The notes below the pieces were generated by a model. That model made no database searches, had not been told where the DNA came from, and saw only the letters and a program-made list of their open reading frames with translations. This document shows positions 6,367 through 30,700 of a stretch of DNA of 64,000 nucleotides, one piece after another (positions within the stretch are counted from its first letter, which is position 1; the number at the start of each line of letters is the position of its first letter). The stretch is from Nemertoderma westbladi. Taxonomy: Eukaryota > Animalia > Xenacoelomorpha. Position numbers and translations under genes: made by a program. The stretch spans positions 1 through 64,000 of the forward strand of contig JAUCBJ010006179.1 of the NCBI GenBank assembly GCA_032718475.1, read 5' to 3'.

Positions 6367-6638
6367 GGATCTGTATTGCAACGTAGGCAATAAAGCTGAA
6401 GTACCGGTCAACCGGTAACTAGTAGGCCTAACTACCTAACCACCCGAACCGGTACTTACAGCAGTACAGGTACACCAGTATTATTTCGATTGTGATATAT
6501 TGTATATTATAGGCTGTTAGGGGATTAGGGATTGATCACCCCTTATTCCTTTGTATGGTTTACTTATTTCTGTCAGTTTTATTTATTTGTAGGTTAATAT
6601 TGAGCAGAAGACGTGTAAGCCTGCTCAGATTGTACAGG

Positions 6639-7219
6639 TAATTTGTAGGCTGGACTGTTGTCTGACTGTTGTTAAGTCTGAAGAGATTGCAGTGTGTGTA
6701 GAGTGTATGTCCGATAAAGTACTAGTTAGGAACGTAGGGGCTTCCAATGCTGTGAGGATAAATCCCCCCGAAAGAATAAGTCGTACTACTCGGTTAGAAC
6801 GCATACTAACTAACCATTTCGGAGTCTGCATATACTGTAGTTTGTTTGGGCTTGATAGTAGTCTGCCAGCGTTTGGTCTGTATTTTGTTTGTGTAGTCTG
6901 TACAGGTAGCGTAATATTTCTTATTTAGATAATTTGTAGGCTGGATTATTGCCTGGCTGTTGTTAGGTCTGAAGAGATTACAGTGTGTGTAGAGTGTATG
7001 TCTGATAAAGTACTAGTTAGGAACGTAGGGGCTTCCAGTGCTGTGAGGTAAATCCCCCCGAAAGAATAAGTCGTACTACTCGGTTAGAACGCATACTAAC
7101 TAACCATTTCGGAGTCTGCATATACTGTAGTTTGTTTAGGCTTGATAGTAGTCTGCCAGCGTTTGGTCTGTATTTTGTTTGAGTAGTCTGTACGCGTAGC
7201 GTAATATTTATTATTCAGA
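6639..7219 (+). repeat. ~291-bp tandem duplication in the 5' leader of copy B
   Basis: 6639-6929 and 6930-7219 are near-identical (both start TAATTTGTAGGCTGGA). Confidence 0.9.
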
Positions 7220-8438
7220 GTTTATGCGATTATTCGCAACATTCATACCCCCAAGTTTATTCCTACAGTAATTGTGCTTGTTATACATACCGTTATAGTT
7301 AAATTAACCCCGGTACTACATCAGGGCTGTTTGGCGTAGGTAAAGACTGGAGATTTTATGATTCGGTCACTCCGGCAAATACCGTGGTTCCTTTAGCTGT
7401 ACAAGTATTTCTAACTGCTGGTTATTTGTTATATAAGTACTTAATAGTACTAAGTACCTAATTTAGGGTTTAGTGTACAGTGCTTTCCGAAAGTAATTAG
7501 TGTGTAGGCAGTATATTTGTGTTGTAAACTGGTTAATAGGCACGTTGGCTCTGGTAGGTCGCGGTAATTAACTTCTAGGTAGGAACATTCCGTGATACAT
7601 AACGTAGTACTTATAGCGATATGGCTATAAGTCGTCAGACGGTGGTATTTTTTCCTATCTGGACAACACAGTATATTTACTACTGCTTTGTTATTTTCAA
7701 ATACCGTAGAATCCTGTCTGTTTGTAATAACCAGATATTCTAACCCTTTGTTAGGCTGGTTTGTAGACTTCTTGTAAAATTACCCTAAAAATTCGTACGT
7801 GTAATTTTTGTGTTTATTTAGAGATTGTAATCTCACCCCGAATTGTACGTAATTTGTAGTATTAAGTAACTTAGGTAAATTAGAATTATTTGTTTTAGTG
7901 TCCAACAAGTAGCACTTCACTGAGAGCGTACAGCTTCTGTGCGGTGACTCTTTCCCAGAAATAATAACATTTATTTCAAATATTGACAAAAACCCATTAT
8001 ACGGGTATATATATTATAAATCAACTCAAACCGATTTATAAAATAGTAGGCCTGTCATACATCAATTAGGTCTTAACATCAGTTGGACTACTGCTTAATT
8101 AACGGTAATAAAGTAAGGTAAAGTAACCAAGTAACCCTAAAATTCAGAAATTCAATTATTCTAAAATAATTGACATACTGGTATTCACGATAGGCTTATT
8201 ATATATTTATATATATTTGTGCTGAAATTACATACCGGTATTCTGTGACAAATCTAGTCTGTAATAATACTTATATATATACTATAAGCATACCGGTATT
8301 CTAATATATTATATATATATATCACGTTACACTGAGTAACAGTATCGGTAATTAATTACTAGGCTAACAGTTGATACTGAATTACTAGACTTGCTTTAAC
8401 TGTAATATAGCAGTAGGCATTCAATTGTACAAACAAAC

Positions 8439-11400
8439 ATGTCTGACACAAAGCAAAACCTGTCAGACAGTCTCCTAGATACAACCATCTGTGACCCAGA
8501 CAGGAGTGTGGAACGTGTGAGACCGAAGTTCAACTCACCTCCTACTGTAAGAAAGATCATTCCTCCAGTAGTAGTATCAGACCCTAGGCTAGTCCAACAC
8601 CGTAGGTCTATCATAGGCACTTGAGCTCAGGTCAAGCGGGACCAAGAAGCAGCAGAACAGCAGCAACACTCGAGCCGAGAAATTATTTCTCAACGGCCCG
8701 ACAGCTCCAGTAGTGCGGATACTGTAGAGCTGACACCCGAGCGCGGAGCAAAGATGGTAGATGCGGTTTATTCGGATCCCCTTCTCATCCTTCCTGCAGC
8801 CGTACTCACTAGGGTATTGATTGCGGTGGAGGAACACCAGATTGATTGGGCGAGAAGTAAGCGATCGACCAAGGATAGTTATGCGGGATACACAAGGGAA
8901 GAACTGAAGTCTATTGTCGAGTCGCAATGGAACTTCCCCGGACCCGGACTCCCGTTTGACTTATCGGAAGCTGCCTGGGAAGACATACACAGGATGGGAG
9001 TGACAAAAGAAACCAGCGATCCAGCCGTGTGGAAGAGGTCAGCAGCAGGATACGTACAGGGATTCTTCAGCTCTATGGAGCGATTAGAGGAACAACTGTT
9101 TCGACAACCCCAAGGACCTCAAGAGCAGGGAGAGCTGCTTTATCAAGTTAGAGAAAGAATTCTAAGAATCAGACTAATCTTATCGGCCTTTGAGGAGGCT
9201 TCGAAAAGAAGACAAGACACGTCGTTGCAAGTTGCCGTAAAGACTTGGTTTCAGCGGGTGAGTCTCAAAGTTCAAGGAACTGCCCCGTGGAAATCTCAGT
9301 TGGCTGAGTGGAAAGTGAAGTGACAGCAGAAAAACCGCATAAGAGGGATGCTATTGACATCTATCTGTCAGACTATCAACGATTTGTAGGTGACGAAGAG
9401 TTGAGGAGACGGCTGTCTGGACTTCGCCCTAATAGTGAAGGAGCCAAGCTGGTGTTGGACGCAATCGATGCGGATATGATAGCTGCGAACCAAGCTAAAT
9501 TTGATGAATGCCTCCGCATCGCTAGAGTCCAGGAAGAACAAGTAAAGAAAAAACGTATAGAAGACAGAAAGATAGCAGCAACGGCAGAGGCAGCGGCAGA
9601 AGCGGAAAGAAAAGCGGCAGAGGCAGTGGCAGAAGCGGAAAGAAAGCGAGCCGTGGCAGAAGCAGAACGAAGAGCATCTGAAGAGACCACCCAACTAGAG
9701 TTGGAAAATATTCAAGAGAATCAAGACTGCATAAATAAACAGTTAACAGCTAGTCAAATGCAGATGATGAGTCGATCTACTCCCAAAAGACAGGGATATA
9801 CATCATCTGATGAAGGCGATACCACCGATCCTGAAGGCGGAGGAAATAGATCTCGTCTAAGCAGACGTAGAAGAATGTCCCACCCTCAGAAATTGCCTAA
9901 TTTGCCCCCAGCTGTTAGAAGGCAACTAACTAACACAGACTTAGGTAGTACAGAACCCACAGACCAAATAATTAAAATAGAAAGGCTCCCTACTATAGTA
10001 GATGAGCCTGAAATAATTAGGCCTGTTCTCGAAGCCACCCCTTTGGTGATAGAGACACCTGTACTCCCAGAACCTACCTCTAAATTCCCTTTGCACAGTA
10101 CCAAACTACCTGTGCCCAGTAGGACTGTTCACGAGTCCGAACCCGTCCTGGACGCCGAGCGAGATATCAAGAATTTATCGCCTGTCGTCTCTCGCTCGCC
10201 CGCTGCTACGTTGGCGACTCCCGCTTCGGCGGTCGAGTGGGTAGCTGAGGGACGACGGGAGATGGGTCTCCTGCTCGGGCAGCTGAGGGAACACCGTCAG
10301 TGCTCCTCTCAGCAGGTCCGGGAGATGGAAGGAACTGTTCAGCAGTTCAAGGGAACAGTAAGGGAAAGTAGGTTAGAGTTGCAAGAAGTGCAGCAGAATA
10401 TCGCGTTAGAACGCGATAAATTAGTAAATATACAAAAAGGTATACCACCAACCCCGGTAACAATGTGTCAACCTGTTAAGTCTGAAGTATTTCATGCGCA
10501 AGGTGTGGAGCCTACACGCATCTATACTGCTAGTGAAGTAGAAACTCCTATAGTAAACCCTATTAAGGGTAATTATAAACCTGTTGACAATGATATTCCA
10601 TATAGACCTGATCATAATCTGAGAAATTTATATACCGATAACTCGATATTAAATAACACGATGGCCCAAGAAAGTTTTACGCGTCAAATGGCTAGAACCG
10701 AAGCCCGTCAAGCGGTAAAGGTGGGAGAGATCGTCAAGTTTAATGGAGATGAGATGAAATGGTTACCTTTTAATGAATATTACAAGGATAACATACAGAA
10801 CTCTGTGTTATCTAACGGAGAGAAACTTAGATTCCTCATCGAGTGCTTGGAAGGATCTCCCAAGTTAATGGCGTTAAGGTTTATTGGACATCCAGATGGA
10901 CTAAGACAAGTTTGGGATACCCTAAACATCAGGTATAGTAATAGGAATAACATAGCTAGGTATTTGTATGCAAAATTGGTAGCCCCCCGAAAGTTCATTA
11001 GCAGCGGGATTATAGAGTTTTCCGATGAGATTCAGGAGATCTGTAGACAATTAGATTGGCTAGGTAAGTCTCATGAATATCAGAGTTCTATGGTTATTGG
11101 AGCCGTGGCCTCTACTTTACCGAAGGGTGGAGTAGGTACACGCTGGGATAAGAAAGTGTTATATATGATGGAACAACAACTCCGACGCAAGGTGTGCGAA
11201 GTGTGGCGCAAAACATCATTTATCTTGTTGCACACTGAATTCGAACGAAACAGCCCGAGTCAGGTAAGTGATTCCGAACTACATGTCCAATTCAGTGATG
11301 TGAACGACACTGACCAAAGTTCTGAGATGGAAGGATTCTATACGGACGAATTCTCCGATGAAAACGAATCCTGTTACCTGATAAATACCGCAGTGTATCG

Positions 11401-14400
11401 AGCACTTACGTATGAAAAGGACACCGATAGCGAGCTTTCCCTAACTACTTCTGACCGACAACCATCTTGGAAAGCACCAACTTCCAATGTAGGAATCCGA
11501 GAATTTCCCGTAGTGCAGTTGAGGGTCCACGGACCTAAAAGGAGTTATATAGTGAACGCCCTCCTTGACTCCGGTAGCACAGGAACATTCATCGACAAAG
11601 AACTAGCCGAAGACATCTTTGCTGGACAACCCAAGTTCCGAACTAAGTTAAACATGTCAGGAATTATGCAGGTTTGGAAATCTACAGTAATAGCGGATTA
11701 TTATGTAAGTGCGTTGTCCACCCCCCAGGATGAACTAGGAGAACACAGCATAAGGTCAGTAAAAATGGTGGCGATAAAGAACTTCGCTACCAGCCAAGTA
11801 GAACCTTATAACTGGGATGAGGACGATTTCACCCAGCAGCTTAATATACCTAGATTCAACACAGATTACCCTGGAGTACAAATACTCATCGGCCAAAATG
11901 CACATGAGGCGCTTGAGACATTGGAGAAACGGCCTGCTCAACCGCAACCACTACAAGCCTATGCGGGAAGAACTAGAGTGGGTTGGTACTTTACTGGCCC
12001 TTCCCGTAGAACTCTTATGGAAAGGTTACCAAAAGAACAGGTATATCAAGTAAGTGAATGGGAAGTGGAGAGCAGTGAGGTAGACGACCCAACTGAGGGA
12101 ACACCATACTCCTCAGATAATGACGATATCCACCAACTCTTCGATGAGAAGAATACCATCGATCTCCTTACGGAAAACGAGACTTGGCAAAACCAAGTGA
12201 ACCTATGTCAACTCATTCGTCCATCAAGACAAGTTGACTATAACAACGAACTGAATGACGTAATCGAGCGCTATAACGCGAAGACTCGGGATGAACACGC
12301 CGTACGATACTTTACTCAAGAGGCTGTAGAGCCCAATTCCTACGATAAGGCCCTATCAGTAGAAGAAGAAAGAGCCAAGCAGATCCAGGAGTCAACTACA
12401 CGTTTTCTTAAAGATCAAGGTAGATATGAAATCGGTCTACCATTCCGAAAGCGAGAACCAAAATTCATAAACAACCGACCCTTGGCGGAGAAAAGAATTG
12501 CTCAACTACATCGACGCCTTACGGCAAATGCTTCAGCTAAAGAAATCTATCAGACTCAGTTGAAGAAATTTATTAACAACGGATATGCGGAGCGAGTACC
12601 GGAAGAAACACCTATAACTGAGAGAACGTACTATTTAACACATCATTACGTTCCCAAACCCGGTAAACCCCATGAAGTAAGGGTAGTATTTGACGGCTCC
12701 GCCCTCTACATGGGCCAATCCCTTAATTCCGAGTTGTTACCAGGACCCAACTTACTCCAATCCTTGTTGGGAATACTCTTAAGATTACGACAATATTCAA
12801 TCGCTTTCGCCTCCGATATAGAAGGCATGTTCTTACAAGTCAAGGCGCTAGATAGGGATCGAGATAGCCTATGATTTCTGTGGTGGCCGGAAGGAGACCT
12901 CAACCAGAAACCGGTGGAGTATTGGATGACCATCCAGGCCTTTGGGATCATCTCAAGCCCTTCAAACGCCTGCTCAGTGGTGCGCACCACTGCTGATGAC
13001 AACCGGGACGCCTTCTCAAAAGAGGTGATCGACAACATCAAACGGGATATATACATGGACGACAATTTAAAGTCCCTTCCATCAGTGGAAGAAGCCATTG
13101 ATGTCGCCAAAGGAACGGTAGAGTGCTTAAAAAGAGGTGGATTTCGATTAACTAAATTCACCAGCAACTCCCTTGAGTTTCTGGAATCGATCCCGGTAGA
13201 AGATCGAGGAGCGAAAGATCTAGACCTAATCAAAGATGATCTTCCAGAAACCAAGACACTTGGTTTGAAATGGGACACAGAGAGAGATATCCTGTTTTTC
13301 CAGCTAAAACAGCGAGATAATCCAGTTCGGACTAAACGGATTTGTTTAAGTATCCTGAGCACTTATTTCGATCCATTGGGATTTATTAGCCCAGTTATAT
13401 TGATTGCTCGGAGTTTAGTACAACAAATGTGGCTTGAAAACCACTCATGGGATGATCCACTTAAGGGAGAACTATTAAAGAAGTGGATGAAATGGGAAGA
13501 TTCTCTACCAGCCATCGAGAACTTTATAATTTCCCGTTCATATTTTGGTCATGTTCTCCCTACGTATTCCTATCAACTCCATGTGTTTGGAGACGCCAGC
13601 GATATGGGAATAGGTATAGTAGCCTACCTGAGAGTGGAAACTCCGGATGGAATCAAAGTCGCCTTGGTTACCTCTAAGGCATTGATAAACAACAAGTTGA
13701 AAGTTCCTCGAGCGGAGTTAAAAGCGGCTCTATACGCTACAGCCATCGGCCGAAATGTAACAGAACAGATCGAATATCCACTGGAGAAAACTGTCTATTG
13801 GACCGATGCTCTACTCGTGTTGGAGTATATAACCAATGAAGTCTGTCAGTTCAGCGTCTTCGTTACCAACAGAGTAGCCATTATACTTAGTCGTACGAAG
13901 ATGGATCAATGGAGACATTGCCCCGGAATGATTAATCCAGCAGACATCGCCTCCAGGGGAGCAACTCCACAAGAACTGATAGATACTCCAGACTGGTTAG
14001 GTGAACCCGACTTCCTAAGCAAAGAAGAGGAAGAATGCCCTCCTCATCTTACTACGGCGGAGATTAGACAGGCCAAGGGAGCGGAGAAAGTCAAACCTAA
14101 AACTCGGGCGAGTAAATCGAAGTTATTTAAACCCGTGGTAGATCTGTCTGTACTACACACTTCCGGAGACGACGCTTTGGATCCGAAACCCACAGCCACA
14201 AATAAGTCTGTTGTGGAAATCAGAGAGAAGGATTGGAAATCTGGAATACCAGACGTCTCGCAAGGACTCTCACCTCTCCTGCAGAGAGCGATATATCACT
14301 ACAGTTCCTGGAATCGGCTCTGTAAGGCCGTTACATATTTAAAGCGATGTTTTCATCATCACTACTCCAGGACGAAGACCAATAGTGATACCGCTCCACT

Positions 14401-15936
14401 GACATCTGTGCAGGTCCATGTTGTTAAAGATCTTCCCAAATATAAGATATCCGACAGGTTTCTGAAGGAGAAGATCAGTTATCAGGAGCATGAAGAAACC
14501 AATAAGCAGATGCTGAGACTCCTGCAATGCTATGAGGATTCCGATAAGTATTTCCTGTTGTTGAGAAATCCACAGATGCGCTTAAGGGATCGTTTCTCTA
14601 GCACAATGATAGATGGGTTGATACGTGTTGGAGGAAGATTAACTAATGCTCCATTATCCTTTGACACTAAGTTTCCCATACTCATTAGAAATCTTGAAAT
14701 ACAAATCAAGATGATTGTAGATGTTCACAGCAAACTTTATCATGCTGGTAGAGAACGAGTTCTTAGCGAAATTCGAACTCGCTATTATTTTTATAAACCC
14801 TGTAGAGCTCTGAACCAAGTTCTTAGGAACTGCATACCCTGTAGGAAAGCATTCAGTAGGCCTTTAACATAGCGAGAGGCAGAATTACCTAGGGAACGAG
14901 TAAGCTTCTATGAACCACCCTTTACTAATACCGGTGTAGATTTATTTGGCCCTATTGAAGTATATCGAGCTAGGACTATAGTCAAGAGATGGTGTGTCAT
15001 CTTTGTTTGTATGACTTGTAGAGCTATCCATCTCGATATGGTGAACGATTTATCTACCAACAGCTTCCTATTGAGCTTACGCCGACAGATCGCTCGCTTT
15101 GGAACTAGTAACACGATGAGATCTGATAAGGGAACGAACTTCATTGGTTTCAACAATGAAATCAAGGCTTACGTCAAAGATTGGAACCAAAGACAGGTGG
15201 ACGATCAGCTAAGGGTAACAGCGTCTAGCTGGACCTTCAACGCCGCCGACGCCCCTTGGTGGGGAGGAAGTTGGGAGAGATTAATCAGGAGCGTGAAGAC
15301 CGCATTTCACTTAATAGTGCCGTGCCGCACGTATCTCACCGACGAACTTTTGCGGACGTTAATGGAGGAAATCGCCGCCTATCTCAACGAGAGACCGCTT
15401 ATGCCAGTCTCATCGAGTCCCGTTTCCCTGGAAGCGCTAACACCCGCGCACTTCCTACTGAAGAAACCTGTAGCCATGCTCCCACGATCGGAAATCACAG
15501 ACGGAGACCAATACTGCCGGCAAACCTGGCAACTTATGCAGTTGTTATCCCGTCGTTTCGCTGACCATTTCGAAAAACATTATCTGCCCACGCTACAACT
15601 TCGAACTAAGTGGTTTGCGCAGCAAGAAAACGTCAGCGCTGGAGACAGGTCCTTATTGTGGATTCAGATCTTCCACGTAAGCGGTGGCAGACAGGTCGTA
15701 TCATCGAGACTCACATCTCGGATGATGGTTTGGTGCGATCGGTAGAACTCGTCGTCATGCGACGTAACTTTAAGAAACCGGGAATTGTCTTCGAGACACA
15801 GCAGCTCAATCGCCCAGTTGGTCGTTTATGTTTACTGGAAAGAGACAGAGAACTCTCCGGAAACTATGGAAGGCAAGATACTCTTCCCACGACCACCTCT
15901 CTAATCCAACAAACATCTAGGGACTCCCCAACTTAA
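8439..15936 (+). pseudogene. pol: gag-pol polyprotein of copy B (Gag, protease, RT, RNase H, integrase), disrupted
   Basis: KFNGDEMKWLPF/EKLRFL (BEL Gag), ALLDSGS, RVVFDGS, SDIEGMFLQV, YMDD, LHVFGDAS, WTDA, NPAD, HAG..CIPC, GVDLFGP, SDKGTNF, WGGSWERL. Stops at 8622, 12872 and 14870; frameshifts at ~9318 and ~15648. Confidence 0.95.
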
Positions 15937-16485
15937 CAACGTCTGGAGTGGGTGTGTGACTATATCATTTTATATTCTTATTATTTTATATTTATGTATG
16001 TATTATTATGTAATTTTATTATAATCGTTTTCTTTAATTTTATTTAGTAGAATGTTATTTTAGCGATTATTTAGTAGATTAGTGCAATATATATTAGTGT
16101 TTATTACTTAATTACTTATATATTATATATTTAGAGCGACGGCGAGAAATAATTCTTTTTCTCTTTCCTTACTGTCCGTATTACATTACAAATACGTAAC
16201 TACAGTAAGATGAAATATTAGTACTTATTAAAGTACAATAAAGCTCCTACTATATTCAAGTATTATTGGTAAAGTAGAGTATTAGGAATGCAAAATTCAG
16301 ATCCTCGTGTCTCGGCTAAACCAAGCTCTGGGTAGACCTTGGAAACGACTTGCCTCTTCTCACTGACATTGCTTCTTGCGATATTGCTCTCATACCGTAT
16401 ATTAAATAATACATATAGTAGCGTGATGTCACTTTAACAGTAGCGTACAACGCAAATAAATCTGTTAAACCCTTTGACCATCTGT

Positions 16486-16780
16486 AATTCTAGTCGATTA
16501 AGATATCGCGGCACCCACCGATATACTTGAAAGACAAAATTCTAGAATCAGTGGTTAACGTCCCGAGACAAGTTCTGGAATAAACCGGTGCCCATCTTAA
16601 ATATTAATTATTAATATTTATAAAGTCTGTCAAATTCAGATCCTTTAAAATTCTAGTCAATTAAGATATCGTAGCACTTACCGATACTCTTAAAAAGACA
16701 AATTTCCTAGAATCCAGGATCCCAGTCCCCAGACATGCTCTGGAATAAAATTGTGTCTATTTAATATTAAATAATAAAAT
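16486..16780 (+). repeat. Diverged direct repeat (~130-bp units) in the pol-ORF2 spacer
   Basis: AATTCTAGTC(G/A)ATTAAGATATCG...AAAGACAAA...TCTGGAATAAA occurs twice; also twice in copy A (~2400, ~2642) and in copy C. Confidence 0.8.
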
Positions 16781-17568
16781 TTACGGGAATAAATTTAAAT
16801 TCATATTTTAATGAATTTGATAAATTGTCATTTTTATGCAATTTATAACATTCCCAAAATTCCATTAATTAATAGATCATGGGAGCGGAGATTCACCCTA
16901 TTAAGTGTATTAGTGTGCGAGAATCTCCAATATATAGTCAATAGCCGATAAAATTCATAAAATCATGTATAAAGGGGATATTGACAATTAAAGAATTACT
17001 ATTAAATAGCATCCCAGATCTGTATGCATGAGAATTACCCTAATTCTACCGCTAGCTTTCCATAATGTCACCATAGCAACAACCACGCTAGAATTAGAAG
17101 TGAGTTAAAAGAACAATAGAAAGCTTACCCCATTGAATAGCATAGGGAATAAATAGCACACTGCTAGTATCCAAGGATACATAATAATAACGTGGCATTC
17201 TGGAAGGCACTGACTAACGGACAAATGGCCCGAATATGTACAGTTTGTGACAGTTGTGTTGAATTTGTGCGTTTATAGGTGAATGTTACTGCTAAAGTCT
17301 GTTTACAGTAGCGAGTCGCAATTGTGAAAGTAGCCCTAACTCTCCAGAAAGAACCTGAAGTACATCTAAGCCTTTGGGACGGACAGTGGAGTGACTTGTG
17401 TCGGTTATCGTTGTCGTTGTGTAGCTACTACGTTGGCGAAAAACACAGCGACGACGGTACATCGGCGCTGAGGATCTTGCACTGTCCGGGGGCAGAGAGG
17501 GGTAGGCAGCGACGCCCGCTAGCCTAAATATAAACTCATTATAATATTGATAAACTCATATAGCAGAT

Positions 17569-20500
17569 ATGACTGAGTTGATAGAAGATGATCTTGGTAT
17601 CAGGGAGCGATATACTCTACCTTTACAAGCGTTTGTTGATAGCTTGATACGCGGCGACGCTGGTCCAACTACTACAAAGGACGATGGTCGTTATATCGAA
17701 CCGCCAATGTCCCAGGAGCAACTTACGCGTGAATTGGACTATAGAAAATTCACCGCTCGCTATACGCATTGTAATGGTACGTATATGGACTTCTTAACAA
17801 CTGGCCATCCTATCGATCTACACAATACGGACGATGTAGACACCGAAAGGGAAATGGTTTTATTTAAATATCATACCCAGCGGAGTCGGAACGATAAACC
17901 GAGAATAGAACACGAGAATTCTATTCGAAACAGACTCGAAAGGGAAGACGTTGAAGAGCCGGATAAACGCAGCGACTTCAACGATTATCTGGAATTCCTG
18001 AGAGAAACATATCTCAATATTGCCAGTCAACAAAATCTAGAAACTCGATATCCTCAAGGTATACATCATGACCCTATGATAGAACTCAAACGACTCTATT
18101 TCACTATGATGTATCTTACCGCCGATTGACCGCTACCTGTCGTCCCAGATAGCTTCGAACAGATGGAGGAATATTGTAAAACTGGAGAACGATCACCCGC
18201 GTTTCCCCTGCAGGACGTGCGTCTTTGGTATTACTGCGACGAATGCCCTAGACCCAATCAGCAAACGGAAAGACATAAACATCCGCGGAGACGTTGCGCT
18301 AAACACAGTTTTACACGATATACTTATGGGAGTTTCGAGCGAAACCTGTTCGACGTATCACCTACGCTCGCTCGACTCAAATGATCCTTAAATAAACCGA
18401 TGATCAGAGTTCCGGAATACTTGGTCAGACCTCCTCATTCCTCAGTGAGACCTCAAACGCTTGATCCTAATAGTATAACGGATCCCCCTGAACTGTACTC
18501 ACTATTTAAAGATCTTGTGTTACCCGAACAATTAATCGGTGGCACTCCGGTAGTGGGCTCACTAGATATTCGCCAACCCTACCTAGCCGGATTAGGACGC
18601 GGTCATCTAATATCGCCGTTTAACCCATACAACCGTCCAGGCTTAACCCCTATACAACCCGTTACCGAAGTCGAAGAGAGCGTTGTACGAAACGCATTAG
18701 ACGCTATTCGGCAGAAGATCGGAAAAGGAACTTACGATTGTTTAGAGAAACGCAAATTGCAGCAACAAGTCCAAGCGGTGAAAGAATTAGCTTTACCCCA
18801 GTTCGATAGAGAAATCCAGAATCTCGAGGAAGACATCGAACGTGGACGAACCTACTCTTTACAAGAGTTCCTAGACGAGCGTTTACAACAACAAGCGGAG
18901 GAAAATCAGCTCGAGGAGAAACACATAGAAATGGATGAGAGAGAAGAAGCAGCTTTAGCCCAGCCAGAAGCTCAAATTCTTATGACGGATCTCTATTCTA
19001 AAACCATCATCCATCCTTCGATGGTTCCCCATTTTGGAGACAAACTCTTCGCCACGGCACAGCCTCAACCAGTTGATATCAACCTAAGATCTCGAGATCT
19101 CATCGCTGATGCTCCCATGTTGCAACGTCCGCCAATTGAGGCCGCTCGTGTCGATGGTATACTCGTTGAACCTCCGGACAATAGAGCGGATCTTGTCCGT
19201 CGTATGGTACACGATGTTAACATACGCGCTAGACCTTTACCGAACTCGTTTTATGGGATCAAAGATCACCCTTATTACGTCAATCTAATGCAATATTACA
19301 TGGTAAAACCGGAAGATCCTACACATAGTCTGAGGTTTCTACCACTAATAAATCCTCTCGATCTTGTCGAACTCTAACAACTGCAGAAACATCTAGATCA
19401 GTTAGTCAAAGTAAACTCATTTTGAAAACCCTATAATGTTTCCAGAATAGAGAAAGAGACAATACCTCCATATAATCTTGATGGATTCATCAAAACTCGA
19501 TTAGTACACTGGAATCTCGACATGTTATTCGAGGAGGAAAGAATACAACGATATGGAGATGTAGAAACATATACTACACAATATTTAAAGTATAGAGATC
19601 TACCTAATGCTAGCGAATGCGCTACCTTGTGGCATCCAGTGGGAATGACTCTAGAAAACGCTACTAAAGTGTGGAATGAGACTCTTAACGTTATCGAGAT
19701 GTATGGAGTTGTCACTTACGATAACGAAGGTAGCGTTCCGGTTGGAGAACTGGGAACTACGCGCATGATACATATACGAGGACTAGCTGGTTCTACCCAC
19801 GTATTTACTCGAGCGTATTCCGATGTGATTGATTATTCCTTTGAGACCCTTACCGAGATACAAAAGAAACTCCGACATAGACAATTCGAACTCGCGCAGC
19901 GTTACGTCACCGACACCGAGCGCAAACCGGCCATGGGTATCGATGGATCGATGTTACCCCAGCCCGTGCTCGAGATGTTGTTTAATGAAAGAATCCTTAA
20001 AATCGGCTCAGCTGTTTACGGAGATCTCCAAAACGACTTTCGGAACATGGAGAACATTCCATACCCTTTCGTTGATACTCAGCTGATTGCTCCCTGGGCA
20101 GAAGGCCGAGGTTTCTTCCGCGCTATGTATGCAAATACACCCAGCGGCATTACTAAAGTACAACGAACCTCCATCGGTCATCTTGCCTTTCAAGAATATG
20201 GATGGAATTTCAAAGTTGGAAATCCTATCAACTACCAACAAGTATATGGAGATCATTATTCTCGATTATACTTTGACGGACCATTGACCGCACCTGGCGC
20301 CGTTGATAGCTTTATGAGTGTTCCACTTCGTCCCTCCTTAGCTATATACACGATCTTTGAAAACGCCGCACTTGCCGGTTGGCTAGCCGATGTGTGCAGT
20401 CGTACCATACGCGCCCATCCCTTAATACTTGGAACCAAACTCGCCAAGCTAGATGAACACAATAAATTCATTCGCTTCGAATGTTTCAGGCGCTTTCTGA

Positions 20501-21814
20501 CTCCGTTCCGTAACGTTGATAGTCAGTTCAAGGACCGCGCTCTGACCAAACTCAGCCTAAGAGACTCAGCTGCGGAGAAGTTAGACAGCACGGGATTCGC
20601 CCTTTTCAAGGACGTTTGTATACAGAACTTACATTCATCTGTTATACAAAGACCTCGAATACCCACGGGTTATTCTGTCGTGGTTATTCTATTCGCTTGC
20701 GGAGACAGCCGCACCTATCTCAGCTATGCAATTGGAAGACGAACCAATATGCTTAGAATCTGAGGAGATTCAGCCTACAGCGCCCCGGAGCAGCGATAAC
20801 GACTACGTCTTGGAATGGTATCAAGGTCCACAATGTCTCACCGCATATGATTATCGGCACGCCAACTATGTTTCTCGAAAACGTTGCAGATTATGCGCAT
20901 CGAGAGATCATTTCACCCCTATGGACTCAGACGTACCCTGCTCCTATTTCCATGAACAACCTATGATGGAGATCTATTGTGCGTATTGCAGACTCAATAA
21001 CTCGCACATTTTTGCAGTCTGCCCCCAATTTATGACTCAATGCCACCACTGTCAACTTAAAGAACATGCCAGTTTTAATTGCCTTTTTAACCGCGATCTG
21101 GAAAGCGTAGATGAGATGATTACCCTGCGCTACATCCGAGCTTGGGAAGCGAACGCGGATTTACATTGTGAGTCACGCCATCGCTATTACCCTGGACGCG
21201 CCTACGAGGGAGTTTACGCGTTCCATCCTTATCTATTCGCGTCTGTTGAACAAAAAACACGCACACCGAGTTACGAACTAATGAAGCGTGTTCGTGAGTG
21301 TATTTCCACCAAATTTGTTCGAAAATATCTCAGGAACGTCAATCCTAACGATATTAATTCATACCATTTGATAAATTTCATCCGTCAAGACCCTGAGTAT
21401 AGCGATTTATTTGTCAACTCACACCCTGAGTTACAGGAAGTATCTCGACGGCCTTACGAATATCGAGCCCGAGAACGCGAGCTGGAAAGAACCATTAAAC
21501 CGAGGAAGTTTCTCACCACTCACGGTCCACCTACCGCTATTGTCCAGATGACTCGTCAGGGACCAGTAGGAGCTGCTGTCCTAAGACGCGCCCTAAAGGC
21601 CGTTAGACCTCGCTCTACTGAAGTTGATATCGATCAACCAGGTACCTCGACCGGCGGATACACCGATCGTAATCCTAAACCTTCAGATGCAATTGTATTG
21701 TACCCTTCACCCAGGAGTTATAGCCCTCCTAGTAAAGTGGCTCGCCCCAAAGAGAAAAGGACTCTTGCTAGCCTCAAAAAACTGCGTAAACGCCGTCCGC
21801 GTAAGAAAGACTAA
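17569..21814 (+). pseudogene. ORF2 of copy B: ~1400-codon protein with DEDDy (RNase D/WRN-like) 3'-5' exonuclease domain and C-terminal CCHC knuckles
   Basis: ORFs 17569, 18163, 18400 and 19522 share one frame (stops at 18127, 18382, 19375, 19423), with one frameshift near 20600-20720. Motifs: VVTYDNEG, LPQPVLEMLFNERILKIGSAVYGD, FVDTQ, SIGHLA, PLRPSLAIYTIFE; then CRLCASRDH..C, CAYCRLNNSHIFAVC, CHHCQLKEHASFNC. Confidence 0.8.
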
Positions 21815-21892
21815 CTGTTTAGAGTATTTTTATATTTTAGAAACTGTGATTTTTTATATTTTATAGAATTAAATCCCATTTTCTGGGAGCGG

Positions 21893-23071
21893 TGTAAAGG
21901 CTTTTGCGGAATTAGCTGGTTATTTTCCCCGCAAAGTACTCTGTAGTTGTTTTAACGGACATAAAAAGCCGTTTCCTTACTGTACCGGTGTTTTAGTGGA
22001 CATAAAAAGCCATTTCTTCTGTATGTGTACTTTAGCGGACATAACTAGCGATTTTATGTCGCAATAAGCCAAATACTCTAAACATTGGAACTCAGATGAC
22101 GACATCTATCAGCTGTGTCCACGTGTAACTTTTTCTTTGTTCTTTGTTCATTCTTTGTTTGGTCGACCAATCAGAGCGGTTTTCACTCTGTGTTGGACAT
22201 AGTATACAGAAACTCACGCAATTCAGTCAGTGTGTGTATTTTTCCTGATGCCAGAAGACCGGCTTTGGAATTTCTGTGTTTCAGGCTTTAGCCAAACATT
22301 AGTAGGCTTGATCATAGAAACGTATAACTGTTATCATAACAAACCAAACCAAACTGGCATACAGCCCATATCATACTATGCATACCTTTCACCGCATTAT
22401 TTTACTGCTATTTACTGTCGGTTATTATTGTATCAGTTGATGGAATATTGTTATATTTGGATAATATCGATAAATAATCATAAAACCCCAATCTTCTTGA
22501 TATACTGTAGGTAAGAGACAGGTTACATATAGCAATTGCGACTTACATTATATTGGTTTTGGAGTGAATCTAATGCTATTTCATAGGCACTACATGTGTC
22601 GGTTGCTGTTCTCCTTATATGTGACTAAAATTAGTGAAGGTCGGCAGATTGGTGTGCAGCATTGTGCGGTAGTGTGCATGAATGTGATAGATAACAAAGC
22701 ATCTCCTAAAGAATGCGCTTTATACGTGAATCATTAGCCATCCCGTTGTGTTTAGTGTAAGTCATAACTCTGTTTACATACTTAGAGCGCCACGTCCTAA
22801 AGGATCTGTTGATATTTCCCGAAAGTGAATAATATTTGTCAGAAATTATATATTAACGATCAGTCGAATAATACAGTAGGCCTACACCGCAATAAGGTCA
22901 GAGCTTGCGAATCCAGTCTCCCGGGTATATCCAGCGGGTGAATGGTCGCGCATAGACTGGCTTCGGCTAATGTAGTGTATCAAATACTCGTCATAGGCTA
23001 AAGTCGATTTATAATCTAGAAGACACCTAAATTTGGCAGGTTAAACTGCTAAAGGTCTGAAAGCGCGAACA
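21893..23071 (+). repeat. 3' LTR of copy B (1179 bp)
   Basis: TGTAAAGG...GCGCGAACA after PPT; CCAAT box at ~22167, Inr-like TCAGT at ~22223, splice donor AG/GTAAGA at 22510/22511. Confidence 0.93.
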
Positions 23072-23403
23072 TACTGTTACACTCACATAATTAGGAATAT
23101 GTACTGTATATAGTAGACCTAAACCCACATTATATCCTATATTATATTTAGTCAAACAAACCTTCCCTTTTTTCCCTTTCCTCTACGACTTCTAGACCTG
23201 CTTCCTTTTCCTCGGCGACTCCTAGACCTGCTCTTCTTTCCCTTCTTACTTCCCTTTCGTTTTTTACGTCTCCTTTTCTCCATTTCATTCCGGCTGGTGG
23301 AACGATTACCACTCTTTTATAGGCTCCTACTTTTCCTTTCATCTAAGGCCCAACTCGGCAAACTATCCAACCCCAAATCACTTTCTTCAGGTTGAACAGG
23401 CAT
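23072..23403 (-). pseudogene. Protamine-like gene copy 1: exon 1 (23403-23162) and part of the intron; nonsense codon; intron interrupted by BEL
   Basis: Reverse complement reads MPVQPEESDLGLDSLPSWALDERKSRSL* then the K/R-rich tract; paralog of 46606 with the same GTTTGT donor and intron sequence. Confidence 0.82.
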
Positions 23404-23878
23404 GATTATTTAAAATATTACCGATAATTACCTCAATAATGTCCTAAACAAAAAACTAAGTTTTGCCTAATTCGCCATGTCAACAACACCCATGACCATT
23501 TTATACTATGTTTTTTTTTTAATTAAATAATTATTGATGTGGATATTCTAGCCGGTAGATGGTACTAATATACTGCATCTTAGTTCAATCTGAATAATTA
23601 ATTCCACGTAGCTAATGTTATTTACTAGCTAGCAGATTTAATTAGCAAGTAAAAAAAATTGTATTAAAATTAAATATAAGACCAGCATGATATTGCCTAC
23701 CGCCTCGTAATTTAACTTGGTTTACACACACACTTTATTAATGATTAGACATTATTGAAATTGATATAGCTAGTATTTTTAATGGCAGCACACAGCGGCT
23801 CATTTATTCATAAAATCAAAAAAATAATATTACGTAACTTGTTTTGTATTATACATTTACATTATATACAAATACACA

Positions 23879-24945
23879 ATATGTGGCTGGCCACGAAAAA
23901 AGGGACTTATGTCGCAAAACCTGATTCTGAGATAGTCGCGTTCAAAGGTTCCCTCTATTTTTGAATAAATTTAATTGGATTATCAATTTAGAAATTAGGG
24001 AAATTCAAATTGGTTCTGATATTCAAGATACCTAGGAAAGAACTTATTACAGGAAGCAATATAAGATGTTGCAGTGTTGTATATAACACTGTTTTAGTGT
24101 TTTCATGTCTGAATTTAGGACTTTAATAAATGGTACTTAATACGAGTAGGTAGGCCTACAGTTATTTTTTAAATGTAATATGGCTGTCATTCTGTTAATT
24201 TCTATTCGTTAGTTCTGAAATTTTGTAAGCACCTACTGCGATATTAAGTGACACTGAAGAATGAATCTCAGACTGTAATGTTCAATAGTCTACCGCTAGG
24301 GGCGATAATGTTCTAGAATGTAAATTGCTTGTCATTTTGGTAATTCCTGTCCGTTTGTTTTGAAATTTTGTAGACAACTACAATATAAAATGACACTGGA
24401 GAATGAATTCTAGCCTGTAATATTCAATAGTCTACCGCTAGGGGCGATAATGTTCTAGAATGTAAAATTTTTTTGAAAAAAAGTTTATTTTTTTTGAAAA
24501 AAAATTAATTTTTTTGAAAATATTTATTTTTTTGAAAAAAATTTTAAATTTACAAAAAAAAAATTTTTTTTGGTTAGGGGCCTACATGTTTTTTTGAAAA
24601 TTTTGCAAAAATTTTTTTTAAATAGTTCATTAACAATATTAAGGGTTTCAAAGTGTTAAAAGTTTGATAAAAAGCCGAATAACATTGACCTGCCTAACTA
24701 TATATAGCAAGAATTGCTATATGATATTATTAATCTTTTCAATTTTTTTTAAAAACAAAATAATTTTGAAAGGAGCTACCCGATTCACCTTCACATAAAT
24801 CGCTATAACTATTTTTTGGAAATAGATATTGAGACACCATTTTTTTTTGTTAAAATCTCTGTAAAATTCTGCATCTCATAGGCCTAATAACTCAAAATCG
24901 ACCTCCGGTAACATAAGGTCCCTTTTCTCGTGGCCAGCCACATAT
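23879..24945. mobile_element. Non-autonomous DNA transposon (MITE) with ~33-bp TIRs
   Basis: ATATGTGGCTGGCCACGAAAAAAGGGACTTATGT at left, ACATAAGGTCCCTTTTCTCGTGGCCAGCCACATAT at right; internal ~140-bp duplication; non-coding. Confidence 0.82.
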
Positions 24946-25464
24946 ACAAATTTACCAGCACCATATTGAATGCATTCCATCAGATAATACTGTATATGTC
25001 CCACTTTCGAATGCCAATAGCTCAGCTATTTCCCAACCAAATTGAAATGTTTGTACATATTTCGAATATTAGCACCGCCAGCTTTCCGTTGGACCAACAT
25101 ATCGATAAGGTTGAAGAACAACTGTGGTGCAACTGGTGCTATTTCGTCGGAGAAACCTTTTTTAAACGCTTGTAGCTAAAGAATAATAGCGGAAATAAAA
25201 ATTCTGGCTCACCCACTCGGGAGAAGGGAGGTGAAACTACCTCATTTCAAATTCTATACAATCTCATTAAGATTTGTAGAAAGATTTGTGGGGGGGGGGG
25301 GGGGGGGGTGTGTCCAGGTACATGAATTTCGACACTATGTATATTCCGGGGCATTGCAGTGGGACGTACATAAAAAAAAACAGTAGATTCCTATAGATAA
25401 AAATTAAATTATTATAGTTATTAGGAGTCCAAAACAACCTTGCGCTTTTATCCACTCGTTCTCT

Positions 25465-27634
25465 ATGATGGCATCGTATTGGACGTTTCGAAGGAAAGTA
25501 CGGAAAGGTGTTAGAGAAGATGTAGGAAGTATTACTGAGGATGATGATATGATAATATCTGATAATGAAAACAGTAAAAATGTGAATAATAATTGTGACT
25601 GTGAATTTCCAATTCAACCAGTAATTATTTGTGATGATGAAATTGATAACATTGACACTTCTAGTTGTAGCTGTGATTCATCAGAGTCCTCTTTCTGCCT
25701 CTCAGATGACTTCAATAATGGTGAACTTGGTGACACTGGGGTACCATAAATAACCGTTACCGGTAGTGACGAACCAAAAACAAGTCCTACCGGTAGCTTA
25801 AAATCATCCTTGGCTTTGTGGGCTATAAAACATAATGTCACTCATACGGCGGCGAACGATTTGTTGGCAATCTTAAATGACAACCAGATTGGAGATCTAC
25901 CTAAGGATACTAGAACGTTGTTAAAGACGCCCAGGATTTCCAATGCCATATCTATTTTTGCAGATGAGGCTTTACCTTCTGGTCATGATGTGAATGCGAG
26001 CAATTTTCTCTATCGTGGTATCTCGAAATTCCTTGATAAATTTCTAAGTGAAGTCCTATCACTACATCCTACAATACATAATTCAACGGACCTTATTGAA
26101 TTAAAGACTAACATAGATGGTCTTCCGTTATTCGATAACTCAAAAGTGCAGTTTTGGCCAATTTTAGGAATTTTGAGTATATTAGAAATTGTTTCAAAAC
26201 CATTTGTAATTGCAATTTATTGTGGGGATGGTAAGCCGGGATCATTAGATAAATATCTCAATGATTTTGTTTCTGAAGCAAATGCTTTAAGCCTCAATGG
26301 TATTTATAACAACGATAAATTGTGGAAATTTCGGGTGCAATTAATTATTTGCGATTATCCAGCCAAAACGTATATTGCAAATAAAAGGCCATAATGGTTA
26401 TGCTGGGTGCGATAAATGCACATGTACTGGAACATGGTACAACAATCGAATGATATTTGCACAATGTGATAGTGAGCATAGAACTGAAGACTCTTTCCGT
26501 ACCAAAAAAGATGCAGCTCATCACATTTGCAGTACAGGTACACCACTCTTAGGTTTAAAACATTTCGACATTGTGAAGCAAACTCCGATTGATGGGATGC
26601 ATCTTCTTTATTTAGGTTATATGCGTAAATTATTGCTTGGATGGTTAAAGGGCCCACTGTACATCCGTCTGCAATCTAGAGATACACAAGCAATTTCTTC
26701 TGGTATACAGTATCAGTTGGGTTTAGTGCCATTAGAGTTCTCTAGGAGACCGAGGTCCATTGACCTTTTGGAACGTTGGAAAGCTACTGAATTCCGTCAA
26801 TTTTTACTTTTCATCGGGCCTGTTGTCTTGAGAAATGTCCTTACAAATGATAGGTATTGCCATTTTTTACTTTTACACTTATCAGCGCGTATTTTATCAT
26901 CTCAGCATCCATTTATTACCACAGAACAGGTAAAATATGCTGATAGCTTGATACAGGAGTACTTCCGGCTGGTTTCGGTAATATATTCCAAAGATATGTT
27001 AATCTATAACACCCATGGTCTTACTCACTTATCAGATGATGTCCTAAGATATGGCTCTTTGGAAAAATTCAGTTCATTCCCATTCGAATCTTATTTGGGG
27101 ATTCTGAAAAGGAGAATACGTTCATTCCGCAGTCCTCTGGCATAAGCTGAGAAACGTTTATTTGAAATTGATAGTGCCACCGGAACCACCACCATTTATA
27201 AACATATGAAAGAACTTCCGACACTTAAGCGCAGAATTAATATTATTATCGAAGATAGACATTCTTTTGCATCATATCGTGACCTCGAGTGTGAATTGTA
27301 TAAAATAAGTTTGAAAAAAGGTGAGAATATAGTTATGTGCAAAGAAACTAAGTCTATATTTATAATTTCGGAGATATTGAAACACTGCGAAGACGATAAA
27401 ATACAACTGAGAGTTTCCGAAGTACCACGGAAATACATAACTGACTTTTATACATATCCATGCCCATCCTCGAATTTTGATATCCTTTTAATTAAGTATA
27501 ACGTAATGGGTGACATACAGTATCCTACGAAGTTAGTAATGTTCACTTCTATTCGCTTCACTAAAATGTGTTGTCTTTACTATAACAATCACGAGACCTT
27601 TGTGTTGTTACCGCTCCTTCATACTGCTAAATAG
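25465..27634 (+). pseudogene. EnSpm/CACTA(CMC)-like DDE transposase, disrupted
   Basis: LPKDTRTLL, NIDGLPLF..QFWPIL, ICDYPAK, KGHNGYAGCDKC, DGMHLLYLG, WKATEFRQFLL, YNTHGLTHL, SSFPFES; stops at 25747 and 27143, frameshift at ~26380. Confidence 0.85.
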
Positions 27635-27729
27635 ACTAAATAAATTTAATTAATATAATCAGAATATTGAATATCTTGACTCTATTTTATAATTTGACTT
27701 TCCCATTGTACTATAATAAATTAATAGCA

Positions 27730-30700
27730 ATGCGGCGTCAAGAGTCCCCCTCTAGCAGTGTTTTCAACAAGCGATATGTTGTTGTTGAATTTCCTGTGCA
27801 AAAAGAGGTGGAATGGGGTCTTAGCTCTTGGATCCAGCATTTGGATGAGTCATCGAGAACGGGGTCGATTTATTGGCCACATAATGTCAACAAATTTCGT
27901 ACGAAGAAGGAGCCAGTTCATGCAAATGAGTTTTCGAAATGGACCATTTATTCCATTAAAGTTTTGGATTTTACAAGTAAGTTGCGTTTGGTTACATACA
28001 TGGTTATTTATTACTAATTTTGTACAGCCCAACTTCGTCCGTTATTATCTGTTACCACCTCAAAGTCCCTTAGTGGTTAAATCCGTTGCCTTGAATTCTC
28101 TCCTGGGGTCAATGGTTCGATCCCCGCATGGGGGACAGGGCAGATTTCGTTTCGGCACGAATGCTTCAAAGGGACTAGCCACGGCGCATCTCTGCCTTGC
28201 ATCCTTAAATTGTACCGCAGCTAAATGAGTTCCTGAGTTTCCTTCGGGCAGAATATATCTGGGGGACCCCACTGGAAATAAAGCAACCCCCCCCCCCCCC
28301 CCCCCCCATCTATATCCGGTAATTGAAAGTAATTTCACACATCACAAGATTCTGCACCTTTCTGCAAATATTGTATTTCACTATATACTGTACTATACGA
28401 TATTCTACGACTATCTGGCAATGGTGGAAGGAGAAACGGCGCCATACAATAATGAGGTTAATGATAGGGGTTTAAGAGTTGTGACAGCGTTACAGCGCAG
28501 TTGCGTAACCAAGGGGGTGGATGCTACTGTTATAGTTTTATTGTTCCACCCACGCGAAATTTGGGAACTTACTCTTGTTTTAAACCGTAACCCTCTGGTA
28601 TGTTTTTCATTTTTATTCCTCTTAAAATATACCTCTACTATCTTCCACTATTACCATACGAATAATTAGTAATATATATTTTAAGAAATTACAATTACAC
28701 CTAAAATCGCAAAAAACGTTTCAGCAAAGAAATGCCCCCTCCCCCGTTCTAAAAAATATTGAATTACAGACCACTGTTAGATATTTATTTCTAGGTTTCT
28801 TTATATTTATACTTTTATTTTATGATCTTAGCCTTCTTCGATCTTTCGACATTTGGAACCACTACCATCAACAACAACCACACTTGTCACTCAACCTGAA
28901 CTTCCCCATACAGTTGAGCCAATACTTGCCGGTGCCGCGACATCTGTAAGTACGGGTGTGGCGGTGTAATCTGTGCTGTAATATAATGTTATATAATTAT
29001 TAATCCATAGGCTAATATAGTTAGCATAATAGCGGAATTACGGAACACTTGCTGTGAGTAATAATTATCCAAGCCCAACAACTATAATACACCATACCAA
29101 TAGCCTTATGTCTACAGTATAATCTGTTATTAATTAGGTATTTTGTTTATTTCTGTCCGCGCAAGTAAGTGTTTTTAATTCGACCCTATGAAATGTGTGA
29201 TAAGTACCATTATCGCGAGCTGCTCGATGACATCTAAGTTATGCCGATGTTTTAAGTATCAACTGAGTGTTGGAGGTACTGTATCACCGAACTAAACTCT
29301 AATTAGCCTACATTGAAACCTAATCTAAATTTAACATATTTTATTTAATTTTAGAATTTGGAATCAACATTCAACTTTCAACAAAGCAATCTTACCACTC
29401 TTACCACATGTGATCCTTTATCATTACCGGTGCCTGTTGATAGCCATAATTATAACTCGGTATGTACTGATAGCAACTACTGTATCTTCATATTTTTTAG
29501 TTTTTCATTTCATATAGAGCAGATTTTTGTGAGGATTCCAAATCTGAGAACTGATTAGCAATATATCTATATTCAATATTATTATTATTATACAGCGCAT
29601 TACATTACCTTACCCGCTGATGGACAACTTTTAAAATCGAGCATTACTATTTATTACTACAGTATTACTATTTATTATTCGAAATTACACTAACGGTAAG
29701 GGCCCATTTATACTCAGCCGTACGACAACGTCGTGCGGCATCCGTGAGGTCAACGTACGGCCTCATCCATGGCCGTAAGGCGTCATGCATTCAATGATTC
29801 CAATACATTTAAATTTGTATCAAATATGTTGAAGAACAAGTTTTGTTAGGCCTGTAGAATAGTTATAAAAATCCTAGCTAGTATAGTAAAACAACAATTT
29901 AGTAAATTGCGGGGGGGGGGGGGGGGTTGCGGAAATGTTACTACTTTATTTCACTCCTTATGTACCGTATTAGTATGTAATATATTTGATTTTCATACTG
30001 TAGCTTTAAGTAATACTATGATAAATCTTGTAGTAGTGCTTTTTATCAAATTTTTAAATGTTAAAAAATTTAAAATGTGAACCAGATTTTATTTACTCGA
30101 AGTGCTTAGTTTTTGCTGTACATTAGTGTTTAAACGGGATTCCGGCAAAAAATGTAACCCCGGTTCCGATCCCGACTTTTTTGGAAAGGGATCCCGAAGT
30201 ATAAATAGTGAAGTAAAATTGTTGAATACCGGAAAAACCGGGAAATTTTTTTGTCAAAATCGCTCGCCTCCCTGCGTATGCGTAAGTTATGTTTCTCAAT
30301 CATTTATTAATTTAATATTATTGCAGATAACTGACAATGTTACAACTGCTAATATTACTCAAATCGCTCCGCCAAAACGATCATCCTCGACATCATTGAT
30401 TCTCGCAAAATTAAATGAGATAATACTGAAGCAAAAGGAGCACGACGTCATCTTAAAGAGGCTCCTAGAGGTGAAGGAAAATGTGTCCTCTCCAATCCCC
30501 GATGGCGATGATATTGATTTAAAGTTGCCACTAAAGTCTATCGACGACTTTCCTCAGATTGAGGAAATTTTGAAGGAGGGCAGCAGTAGGGACGTCCTAA
30601 AGCGTCGAGTTCGTGGGGTTGGTGACTCCTCCATGGGAGACAATACACGCGCCGCTATGCGGATGTTAATGACGGATGAGGTGGCGCAGAATGTTAATTG

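Follow-up and report, generated by a model that had tools for sequence, protein, structure and literature searches.

The locus described here raises the question of what kind of protein a retrotransposon carries in the position of an envelope gene. In a 64-kb stretch of DNA of Nemertoderma westbladi (contig JAUCBJ010006179.1 of assembly GCA_032718475.1, positions 1–64,000; hereafter the window), self-comparison revealed three copies of one long terminal repeat (LTR) element, and copy 2 contains a long open reading frame (ORF), termed ORF2, in the env position. An initial annotation had joined several ORFs into a frame of ~1400 codons between integrase and polypurine tract and had recognized in it a DEDDy-type 3'-5' exonuclease. 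The joined frame is confirmed, with ~1414 codons lying between DUF5641 and the tract at 21885–21892. We conclude that ORF2 very probably holds a DEDDy-type (RNase D-like) domain. It is under purifying selection at a level like that of pol, and its exonuclease domain belongs to a multicopy BEL/Pao family (coordinates of all features are compiled in Table 1).

By its sequence features copy 2 is a BEL/Pao LTR retrotransposon. Its LTRs are of the TG...CA type, and a polypurine tract precedes the 3' LTR. Pfam searches of copy 2 identified Peptidase_A17 (PF05380, E 1e-36), DUF1759 (PF03564, E 1e-10), H2C2 (PF17921) and DUF5641, and Peptidase_A17 occurs together with the domain order protease, reverse transcriptase (RT), RNase H and integrase that defines BEL/Pao. 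The gag of these elements combines DUF1759 with three Cys-His boxes; three such boxes, one with a changed histidine, are found in copy 1, and they are partly deleted in copy 2. The RT/RNase H region has 1878 relatives at E ≤ 1e-20. The best 120 of the 1878 are 40–45% identical, all carry PF05380, and their named hosts are fish, echinoderms, cnidarians and a nemertean. None of these 120 nearest pol proteins has an exonuclease domain in frame, a comparison in which a separate ORF would not show. The element thus resembles BEL/Pao (Belpaoviridae) in its Gag-protease-RT-RNase H-integrase order, Peptidase_A17, DUF1759, DUF5641, triple gag boxes and LTRs of ~1.2 kb. It differs from the usual members, for which excerpts of PMC3118150 give 4.2–10 kb, in its length of 17.9 kb, in an extra ORF that encodes a nuclease and not env, and in the lack of a visible canonical primer-binding site. 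Because no TGG-type primer-binding site was seen after the 5' LTR (after 6354), priming is possibly unusual; in place of that site a short palindrome follows the LTR shared by copies 1 and 2 (5191–6354).

The start codon of ORF2, ATG 17569, is present in all three window copies. In copy 2 the first frame runs from there to ~20683 and contains stops at 18127, 18382, 19375 and 19423; the ORF continues in another frame after ~20684 up to the terminal stop at 21812–21814. Stops 18127 and 18382 do not occur in those window copies that cover them, and at 18127, 18382 and 19375 another letter accounts for 98–100% of the depth of a public run (X1). Stop 19423 is not among the variant rows shown for X1, so that three of the four stops can be called private to copy 2. 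The frame change is likewise private to this copy because depth at 20685–20693 falls to 88, 21 and 35 in the public runs X1, X3 and X4, as against 10^4–10^5 nearby in X1 and X3, and because loose ends occur at 20683 in all three runs. In the family, ORF2 is probably one longer ORF of more than 1414 codons. No introns are evident in its frame. Upstream of it lies a spacer that presumably provides an internal promoter or a splice acceptor for ORF2; an AG stands just 5' of the conserved ATG. Rfam gave no match in 5000–24000, spacer included, and a promoter scan with a bacterial model, which is unsuited to animal DNA, remained at chance level. An old duplication of ~163 nt with 75% identity is present within the spacer (16458–16783) in all three copies.

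Position alone would suggest an envelope-like protein, as in other 3' ORFs of BEL/Pao elements, a few of which have env according to excerpts of PMC3118150. This reading has next to no probability, unless a membrane anchor lies in the segment that copy 2 lacks at its break near 20684. The maximum Kyte-Doolittle value over 19-residue windows of ORF2 is 1.19, without a transmembrane-like segment, and Pfam found no env family; a nuclease, knuckles and a basic tail are found instead. As ORF2 has no transmembrane segment, we do not regard it as env, in line with the initial annotation (no dedicated signal-peptide predictor was used). The three zinc knuckles and the basic tail, whose final 30 residues include 14 K/R, were also found where that annotation had placed them. 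The N-terminal part contains a charged, helical-looking stretch at ~18680–18980, as read by eye.

A phmmer search of 1.84 billion representative proteins found a single protein related to the exonuclease domain, P0004 (E 2.8e-4), an unnamed ENA protein of 648 aa that forms a singleton cluster. With ~30% identity to the window domain it aligns over ExoI (IDVE/YDNE), ExoII and ExoIII, keeps all five catalytic positions and has the same ExoIII PL-x6-Y-x3-E. In a single ORF, P0004 carries the exonuclease (D-E-D-y-E) followed by three knuckles, which match those of the window in a pairwise comparison (E 9e-5), the HIV nucleocapsid (E 1e-4) and, weakly, Air2 (E 0.064). It differs from ORF2 in lacking the long N-terminal part. 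Because P0004, the sole homologue found, shares the glutamate, the D>E exchange in ExoIII is a trait of the lineage and not decay.

The DEDDy assignment of the initial annotation is supported by NCBIfam, the ESM Atlas, blind bacterial matches and hhalign, which agree even though the single sequence gave no Pfam match at E ≤ 1 within the exonuclease segment. NCBIfam gave an RNase D match in the ExoII region (E 0.0032). In the ESM Atlas, 24 of 30 matches of the window domain belong to PF01612 (score 0.92), with 152 shared features, which is under the count usual for close family members; for P0004 the figures are 25 of 30 and 0.94, and unnamed basidiomycete proteins rank first. A two-sequence profile of the window domain and P0004, run blind over 301 bacterial genomes, produced 25 matches, all of them weak (E 8e-5 to 0.01) and all inside a DEDDy domain; the ORF concerned has the size of an RNase D in 24 cases and ~1000 aa in the remaining one. 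Alignment of this profile with an RNase D alignment by hhalign reached a probability of 92 and a score of 49, as compared with maxima of 21.5 in 60 column shuffles and 27.5 in 17 other segments of the element, and with 12.5 for the reversed profile. Chance resemblance of the motifs was considered and rejected in view of the multicopy nature of the domain, its third-position bias (see below) and the 25 of 25 blind matches. The same motif order and spacing (ExoI-II-III) is found in RNase D, EXD, WRN-exo, Nibbler (Mut-7) and Rrp6 (PF01612; 1yt3, 6k17, 2e6l, 7jw6, 3saf), with which the ORF2 domain shares the motifs P-x-x-DTQ and PL-x6-Y-x3-[D/E]. It is 11–23% identical to these enzymes and differs from them by two insertions of ~30–40 residues, the ExoIII glutamate and a score below the Pfam cut-off. 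An HRDC domain was not found in ORF2.

The catalytic positions given in the initial annotation all proved correct, and their register was examined against bacterial domains. Motif trimming was passed by 89 of 94 domains, 84 of them distinct, and removal of 8 rows with long insertions left 76. All 15 accurate MAFFT runs (5 subsets in three modes, two of which use the same algorithm) placed D19720, D20023, Y20347 and E20359 in the invariant D, D, Y and D columns, respectively. The ExoI D-x-E (D23 and E25 of the domain) is invariant in 78 of 78 rows, and so is the ExoII aspartate (D124) in the register alignment. When AlphaFold was supplied with the family alignment of 76 rows, the predicted confidence (pLDDT) was 67, and D23 and E25 were placed in strand 19–27. 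This family-assisted model matches diDNase, RNase D, EXD1, Nibbler, WRN, Egalitarian and Rrp6 (Z 13.6–11; root-mean-square deviation, rmsd, ~3), with VIA-align Z of 13.6/13.4, and every one of the top rows is a DnaQ-fold enzyme; Pandoravirus exonucleases are matched as well. Its predicted likeness to RNase D (1yt3) corresponds to Z 13.4 and an rmsd of 3.2 over 157 residues.

Several observations weigh against this assignment and qualify its strength. The fold matches are partly circular, the model having been built with the 76 family rows, and the single sequence yielded a pLDDT of 33; agreement with a DnaQ fold that is independent of this model comes from the ESM features. Most of the sequence covered by the non-circular profile matches is the ExoII region (47 columns, or 126 for P0004 alone), and the hhalign probability was 0.6 when the comparison was confined to the stand-alone bacterial DEDDy domains. 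The register of the ExoIII glutamate was recovered in 3 of 10 fast MAFFT runs, and ExoIII was misplaced in L-INS-i runs before the rows with long insertions were removed, i.e. the register depends on the alignment. The canonical Y-x3-D is replaced: the acid is glutamate in the window protein and P0004 and aspartate in 76 of 76 bacterial rows, and the domain is therefore a variant and not a canonical DEDDy member. Other searches were negative within their scope. For the exonuclease segment alone, neither a PDB sequence search nor a word-index search of longer proteins gave a match. No PDB entry passed E ≤ 0.001 in Foldseek, RNase D coming closest with 1.1e-3, and a profile search of the PDB listed EXD2 (E 1.3) together with RNase D (E 2.3) and two unrelated rows, a result without significance by itself. 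With the two-sequence profile no more relatives were found in the protein database, JGI metagenome contigs or viral contigs, and a pattern search of prokaryote genomes yielded none either. PHROGs gave one row (E 0.36), and tblastn against plasmids and phages gave rows at E ≥ 4 at best.

Selection on ORF2 was estimated by pairwise Nei-Gojobori comparison of copy 2 with copies 1 and 3, using our own script without transition correction. The dN/dS values of ORF2 are 0.19 (433 codons), 0.16 (147), 0.11 (246) and 0.15 (115), and 0.41 for the tail (53 codons); control segments of pol gave 0.09, 0.18 and 0.19. Contigs matching 19600–20800 number 4558, 1643 and 49 in X1, X3 and X4, depth sums of these runs not being taken as copy numbers. 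The public runs listed as containing the sequence include no RNA run, which is not evidence about expression either way. Exonuclease variants were counted from 40 of 177 rows of these contigs, 34 of which lie before the break. At 24 of these 34 sites the variant is in the third position (binomial p 1e-5); the proportion is 23 of 27 at sites varying among copies as against 1 of 7 at sites private to copy 2 (Fisher p 0.001). The five catalytic codons are free of variants among these 34 sites (from 40 of 177 rows). With a DnaQ-type match, dN/dS well below 1 and a multicopy sequence, the three points on which the initial annotation had made its reading depend all came out in its favour. That annotation had also seen remnants of ORF2 in all three copies as the mark of a family gene. 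The ends of ORF2 are indeed kept in copies 1 and 3, which retain just 17569 to ~18930 and the last 160–350 nt (in copy 1 the tail is 95% identical over the last 57 aa). The exonuclease and knuckle region, by contrast, is missing as a whole from both, copy 1 lacking ~18930–21460 and copy 3 ~18935–21650. Thus, the domain is a feature of the family because it is multicopy in public runs, and not because of copies 1 and 3. The starting points of the two deletions differ by no more than 5 nt (~18930–18934), whereas their ends are ~190 nt apart.

Three one-base frame breaks in ORF2 (18624, 18647 and 18870) and a stop at 18826 are common to copies 1 and 3. Within 18648–18869 the changes specific to copy 1 or copy 3 are spread over all codon positions, as expected of neutral divergence after the breaks, whereas 16 of 23 changes on the copy-2 branch are in the third position. 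The converse possibility, that copy 2 is the frameshifted one at 18624–18870, was rejected: its frame contains no stop there, and the third-position changes speak against it. Since copies 1 and 3 share the breaks and then diverged neutrally, ORF2 was lost by a sublineage that persisted. Such persistence fits a product that acts in trans, or one that is dispensable. The deletion that removes RT from copy 1 (12129–13904) is present as a joint in four of four public runs compared, which suggests that elements of the copy 1 type form a non-autonomous subfamily.

DEDDy domains in transposons are known as such, and the uniqueness implied by the initial annotation does not hold. Excerpts of PMC5408684 (Rodriguez, Kenefick, Arkhipova 2017) describe DEDDy ORF3s, with 'DEDD changed to DEED', in the Juno and Vesta LTR elements and Athena/Terminons of bdelloid rotifers, with no activity demonstrated in that text. 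Parts of PMC3706591 report a DEDDy domain for Dada transposases from Laccaria and Ectocarpus, and transposon-borne examples recur in passages of PMC6431247, PMC5718144 and PMC6338049, the last of which regards the domain as a well-known accessory. Among these, as far as the excerpts go, Terminon/Athena ORFs belong to Penelope-like elements (PMC6431247, PMC5408684), and in Dada, a DNA transposon, the domain lies inside the transposase and keeps DEDD (PMC3706591). ORF2 resembles the Juno/Vesta ORF3 in having an RNase D-like DEDDy domain in a separate env-position ORF, no transmembrane segment and one motif D>E. The Juno and Vesta lineages are gypsy-like. By contrast, ORF2 belongs to a BEL/Pao element, its motif reads D-E-D-y-E and not DEED, and, compared by description only, its domain is part of a protein of at least 1400 residues with triple knuckles and a basic tail. 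What is new in ORF2 is the superfamily, the architecture and the ExoIII glutamate. The term 'exonuclease' is absent from PMC3118150, PMC8556966, PMC6238403 and PMC5348765, and the open literature yielded no description of a BEL/Pao element with a DEDDy ORF, Repbase, Dfam, GyDB, subscription journals and supplements lying outside the search.

What might such a gene do for the element? Our tentative proposal is that ORF2 is a selected accessory gene for a trans-acting RNase D-like nuclease with knuckles that may blunt the silencing of the element by small RNAs. ORF2 would be expressed from a sub-genomic transcript that arises through the 1.6-kb spacer, as a large RNA-binding protein whose zinc knuckles bind RNA. 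The D-E-D-y-E site, as read from its motifs, would bind two metals and is likely to be active as an exonuclease, given that its four acids and its tyrosine have withstood ~70% divergence. It would trim 3' ends in trans, and the substrate may be RNA because the closest sequence matches are to RNase D and because knuckles are present. Small silencing RNAs or unmethylated precursors, trimmed at their 3' ends, are conceivable targets, and this is the least supported step. DEDDy domains occur in chemically unrelated elements (LTR, Penelope-like and DDE), which would point to a benefit common to all transposons and not to a single step of reverse transcription. By this analogy, opposition to small-RNA silencing could be that benefit, and we favour it with reserve over a replication role or a non-catalytic adaptor. 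Two points weigh against it: mature PIWI-interacting RNAs (piRNAs) are 2'-O-methylated, which blocks many enzymes of this kind, and the copy number of rotifer elements is not clearly linked to the presence of a DEDDy ORF3, according to excerpts of PMC5408684.

Slightly less probable, in our estimate, is a replication cofactor, i.e. an active exonuclease that trims 3' ends of element RNA, primer or cDNA in the particle or the nucleus. It might proofread or clear dead-end cDNA, and it may help an unusually long element of 17.9 kb, given the usual BEL/Pao size cited above from PMC3118150. A replication role was proposed for the rotifer ORF3s and the Dada exonucleases (excerpts of PMC5408684 and PMC3706591), the knuckles of P0004 are nucleocapsid-like, and the lack of a TGG-type site would fit as well. 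On the other hand, such a gene is absent from the descriptions of most BEL/Pao elements and from the reading frame of the 120 nearest pol proteins, and ORF2 is separate and not within the packaged Gag-Pol. An RNA-binding adaptor with little or no catalysis, which like Egalitarian, EXD1 or Maelstrom would grip element RNA for transport, nuclear import or protection, is unlikely. The ExoIII exchange in both homologues speaks for it, as do EXD1 (Z 12.6) and Egalitarian (Z 12.0) among the tied structural matches and the ~700 N-terminal residues, whose helical-looking stretch could bind partners. However, known pseudo-nucleases have lost catalytic residues (Maelstrom/EXD1; excerpts of PMC5408684), whereas in ORF2 the four acidic positions and the tyrosine are conserved as stated, their codons being free of listed variants. 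Finally, the domain could be a captured host gene or passenger without a role for the element, or a chance resemblance. The single sequence lacks a Pfam or PDB match and the domain is gone from copies 1 and 3, but its multicopy state, third-position bias, dN/dS like that of pol, intron-free appearance and blind DEDDy matches largely refute this view, which we consider very improbable.

Table 1. Features of the BEL/Pao element and its copies in the 64-kb window.
Feature	Position	Strand	Remarks
Copy 1	1–6354	+	Internal deletion (RT and integrase parts; ORF2 ~18930–21461 in copy-2 coordinates); keeps triple gag Cys-His boxes
Copy 2 (BEL/Pao element studied)	5191–23071	+	Length 17.9 kb
Copy 3	52778–58320	-	Integrase frame open; ORF2 ~18935–21651 deleted; LINE in place of 5' part
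5' LTR of copy 2	5191–6354	+	TGT...ACA; also 3' LTR of copy 1 (tandem arrangement)
gag-pol, BEL/Pao type, broken	8439 (predicted start)–15936	+	Pfam and motif positions
gag-pol domain order			DUF1759, protease 11561, RT YMDD 13052, Peptidase_A17/RNase H, H2C2, integrase core 14936/15122/15272, DUF5641
Spacer, non-coding, 1.6 kb	15937–17568	+	92–95% identity between copies
ORF2, env position	17569–21814	+	~1414 codons in copy 2; between integrase (DUF5641) and polypurine tract
N-terminal 695 codons of ORF2	17569–19653	+	No Pfam match (0 families); purifying selection
DEDDy/RNase D-like 3'-5' exonuclease domain (very probable)	19654–20412	+	Uninterrupted in copy 2
Catalytic positions			ExoI D19720/E19726; ExoII D20023; ExoIII Y20347/E20359
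Break private to copy 2, frame change	20684–20693	+	Depth drop and loose ends
Three zinc knuckles	20885–21082	+	Cx2Cx4Hx10C, Cx2Cx5Hx4C, Cx2Cx4Hx4C
Basic tail, putative nuclear localization signal	21722–21811	+	14 K/R in last 30 residues
Polypurine tract	21885–21892	+	Identical in 3/3 window copies
3' LTR of copy 2	21893–23071	+	89% identity to 5' LTR over aligned columns

The end sequence of the 5' LTR of copy 2 is found again at 23071, 37140 and 52778, and these ends adjoin pieces of one other repeat region (46553–47977) at differing positions. The stretches concerned are 36852–37140 (a partial LTR of the same family, ending at 37140), 23071–23455, 46553–47977 and 51904–52773; an insertion preference or a local duplication is possible. 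A long interspersed nuclear element (LINE)-like element (58356–64000, plus strand) is inserted in copy 3. Its first frame, open over 1614 codons with tandem repeats of 30 nt and 180 nt, contains a Ulp1/SUMO-protease-like domain (PF02902, E 9e-6, above the cut-off), and the next frame begins with an AP-endonuclease domain (PF03372, E 9e-12). It is tempting to speculate that a deSUMOylase in a LINE ORF1 could oppose SUMO-dependent silencing. Further features of the window are hAT-like transposase remnants on the minus strand (38516–40348 and 40579–41127; weak Dimer_Tnp_hAT and zf-BED matches), remnants of a Copia-type retrotransposon (42077–43799, minus strand; RVT_2 E 1e-34, rve E 8e-12) and a series of broken ORFs without clear Pfam match (25408–28949, plus strand).

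Our study extends the repeated and unexplained capture of DEDDy domains by transposons to BEL/Pao, a major LTR superfamily of animals in which env-like extra genes have been described. In comparison with the low-copy rotifer cases, this BEL/Pao family is abundant, its domain is under clear purifying selection, and sublineages without ORF2 exist naturally. As the domain is uninterrupted in copy 2 and in one homologue, the role of transposon DEDDy ORFs is open to direct test. To our knowledge, element-encoded suppressors of piRNA silencing have rarely been described in animals. It is a doubtful but attractive idea that there is a lineage of animal transposon 'DEDyE' nucleases with knuckles which is a dedicated suppressor of silencing by piRNAs or small interfering RNAs and acts by over-trimming small RNAs. 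If true, such nucleases would be to animal retrotransposons what silencing suppressors are to viruses, and they would account for the very high abundance both of the family and of its ORF2-less parasites.

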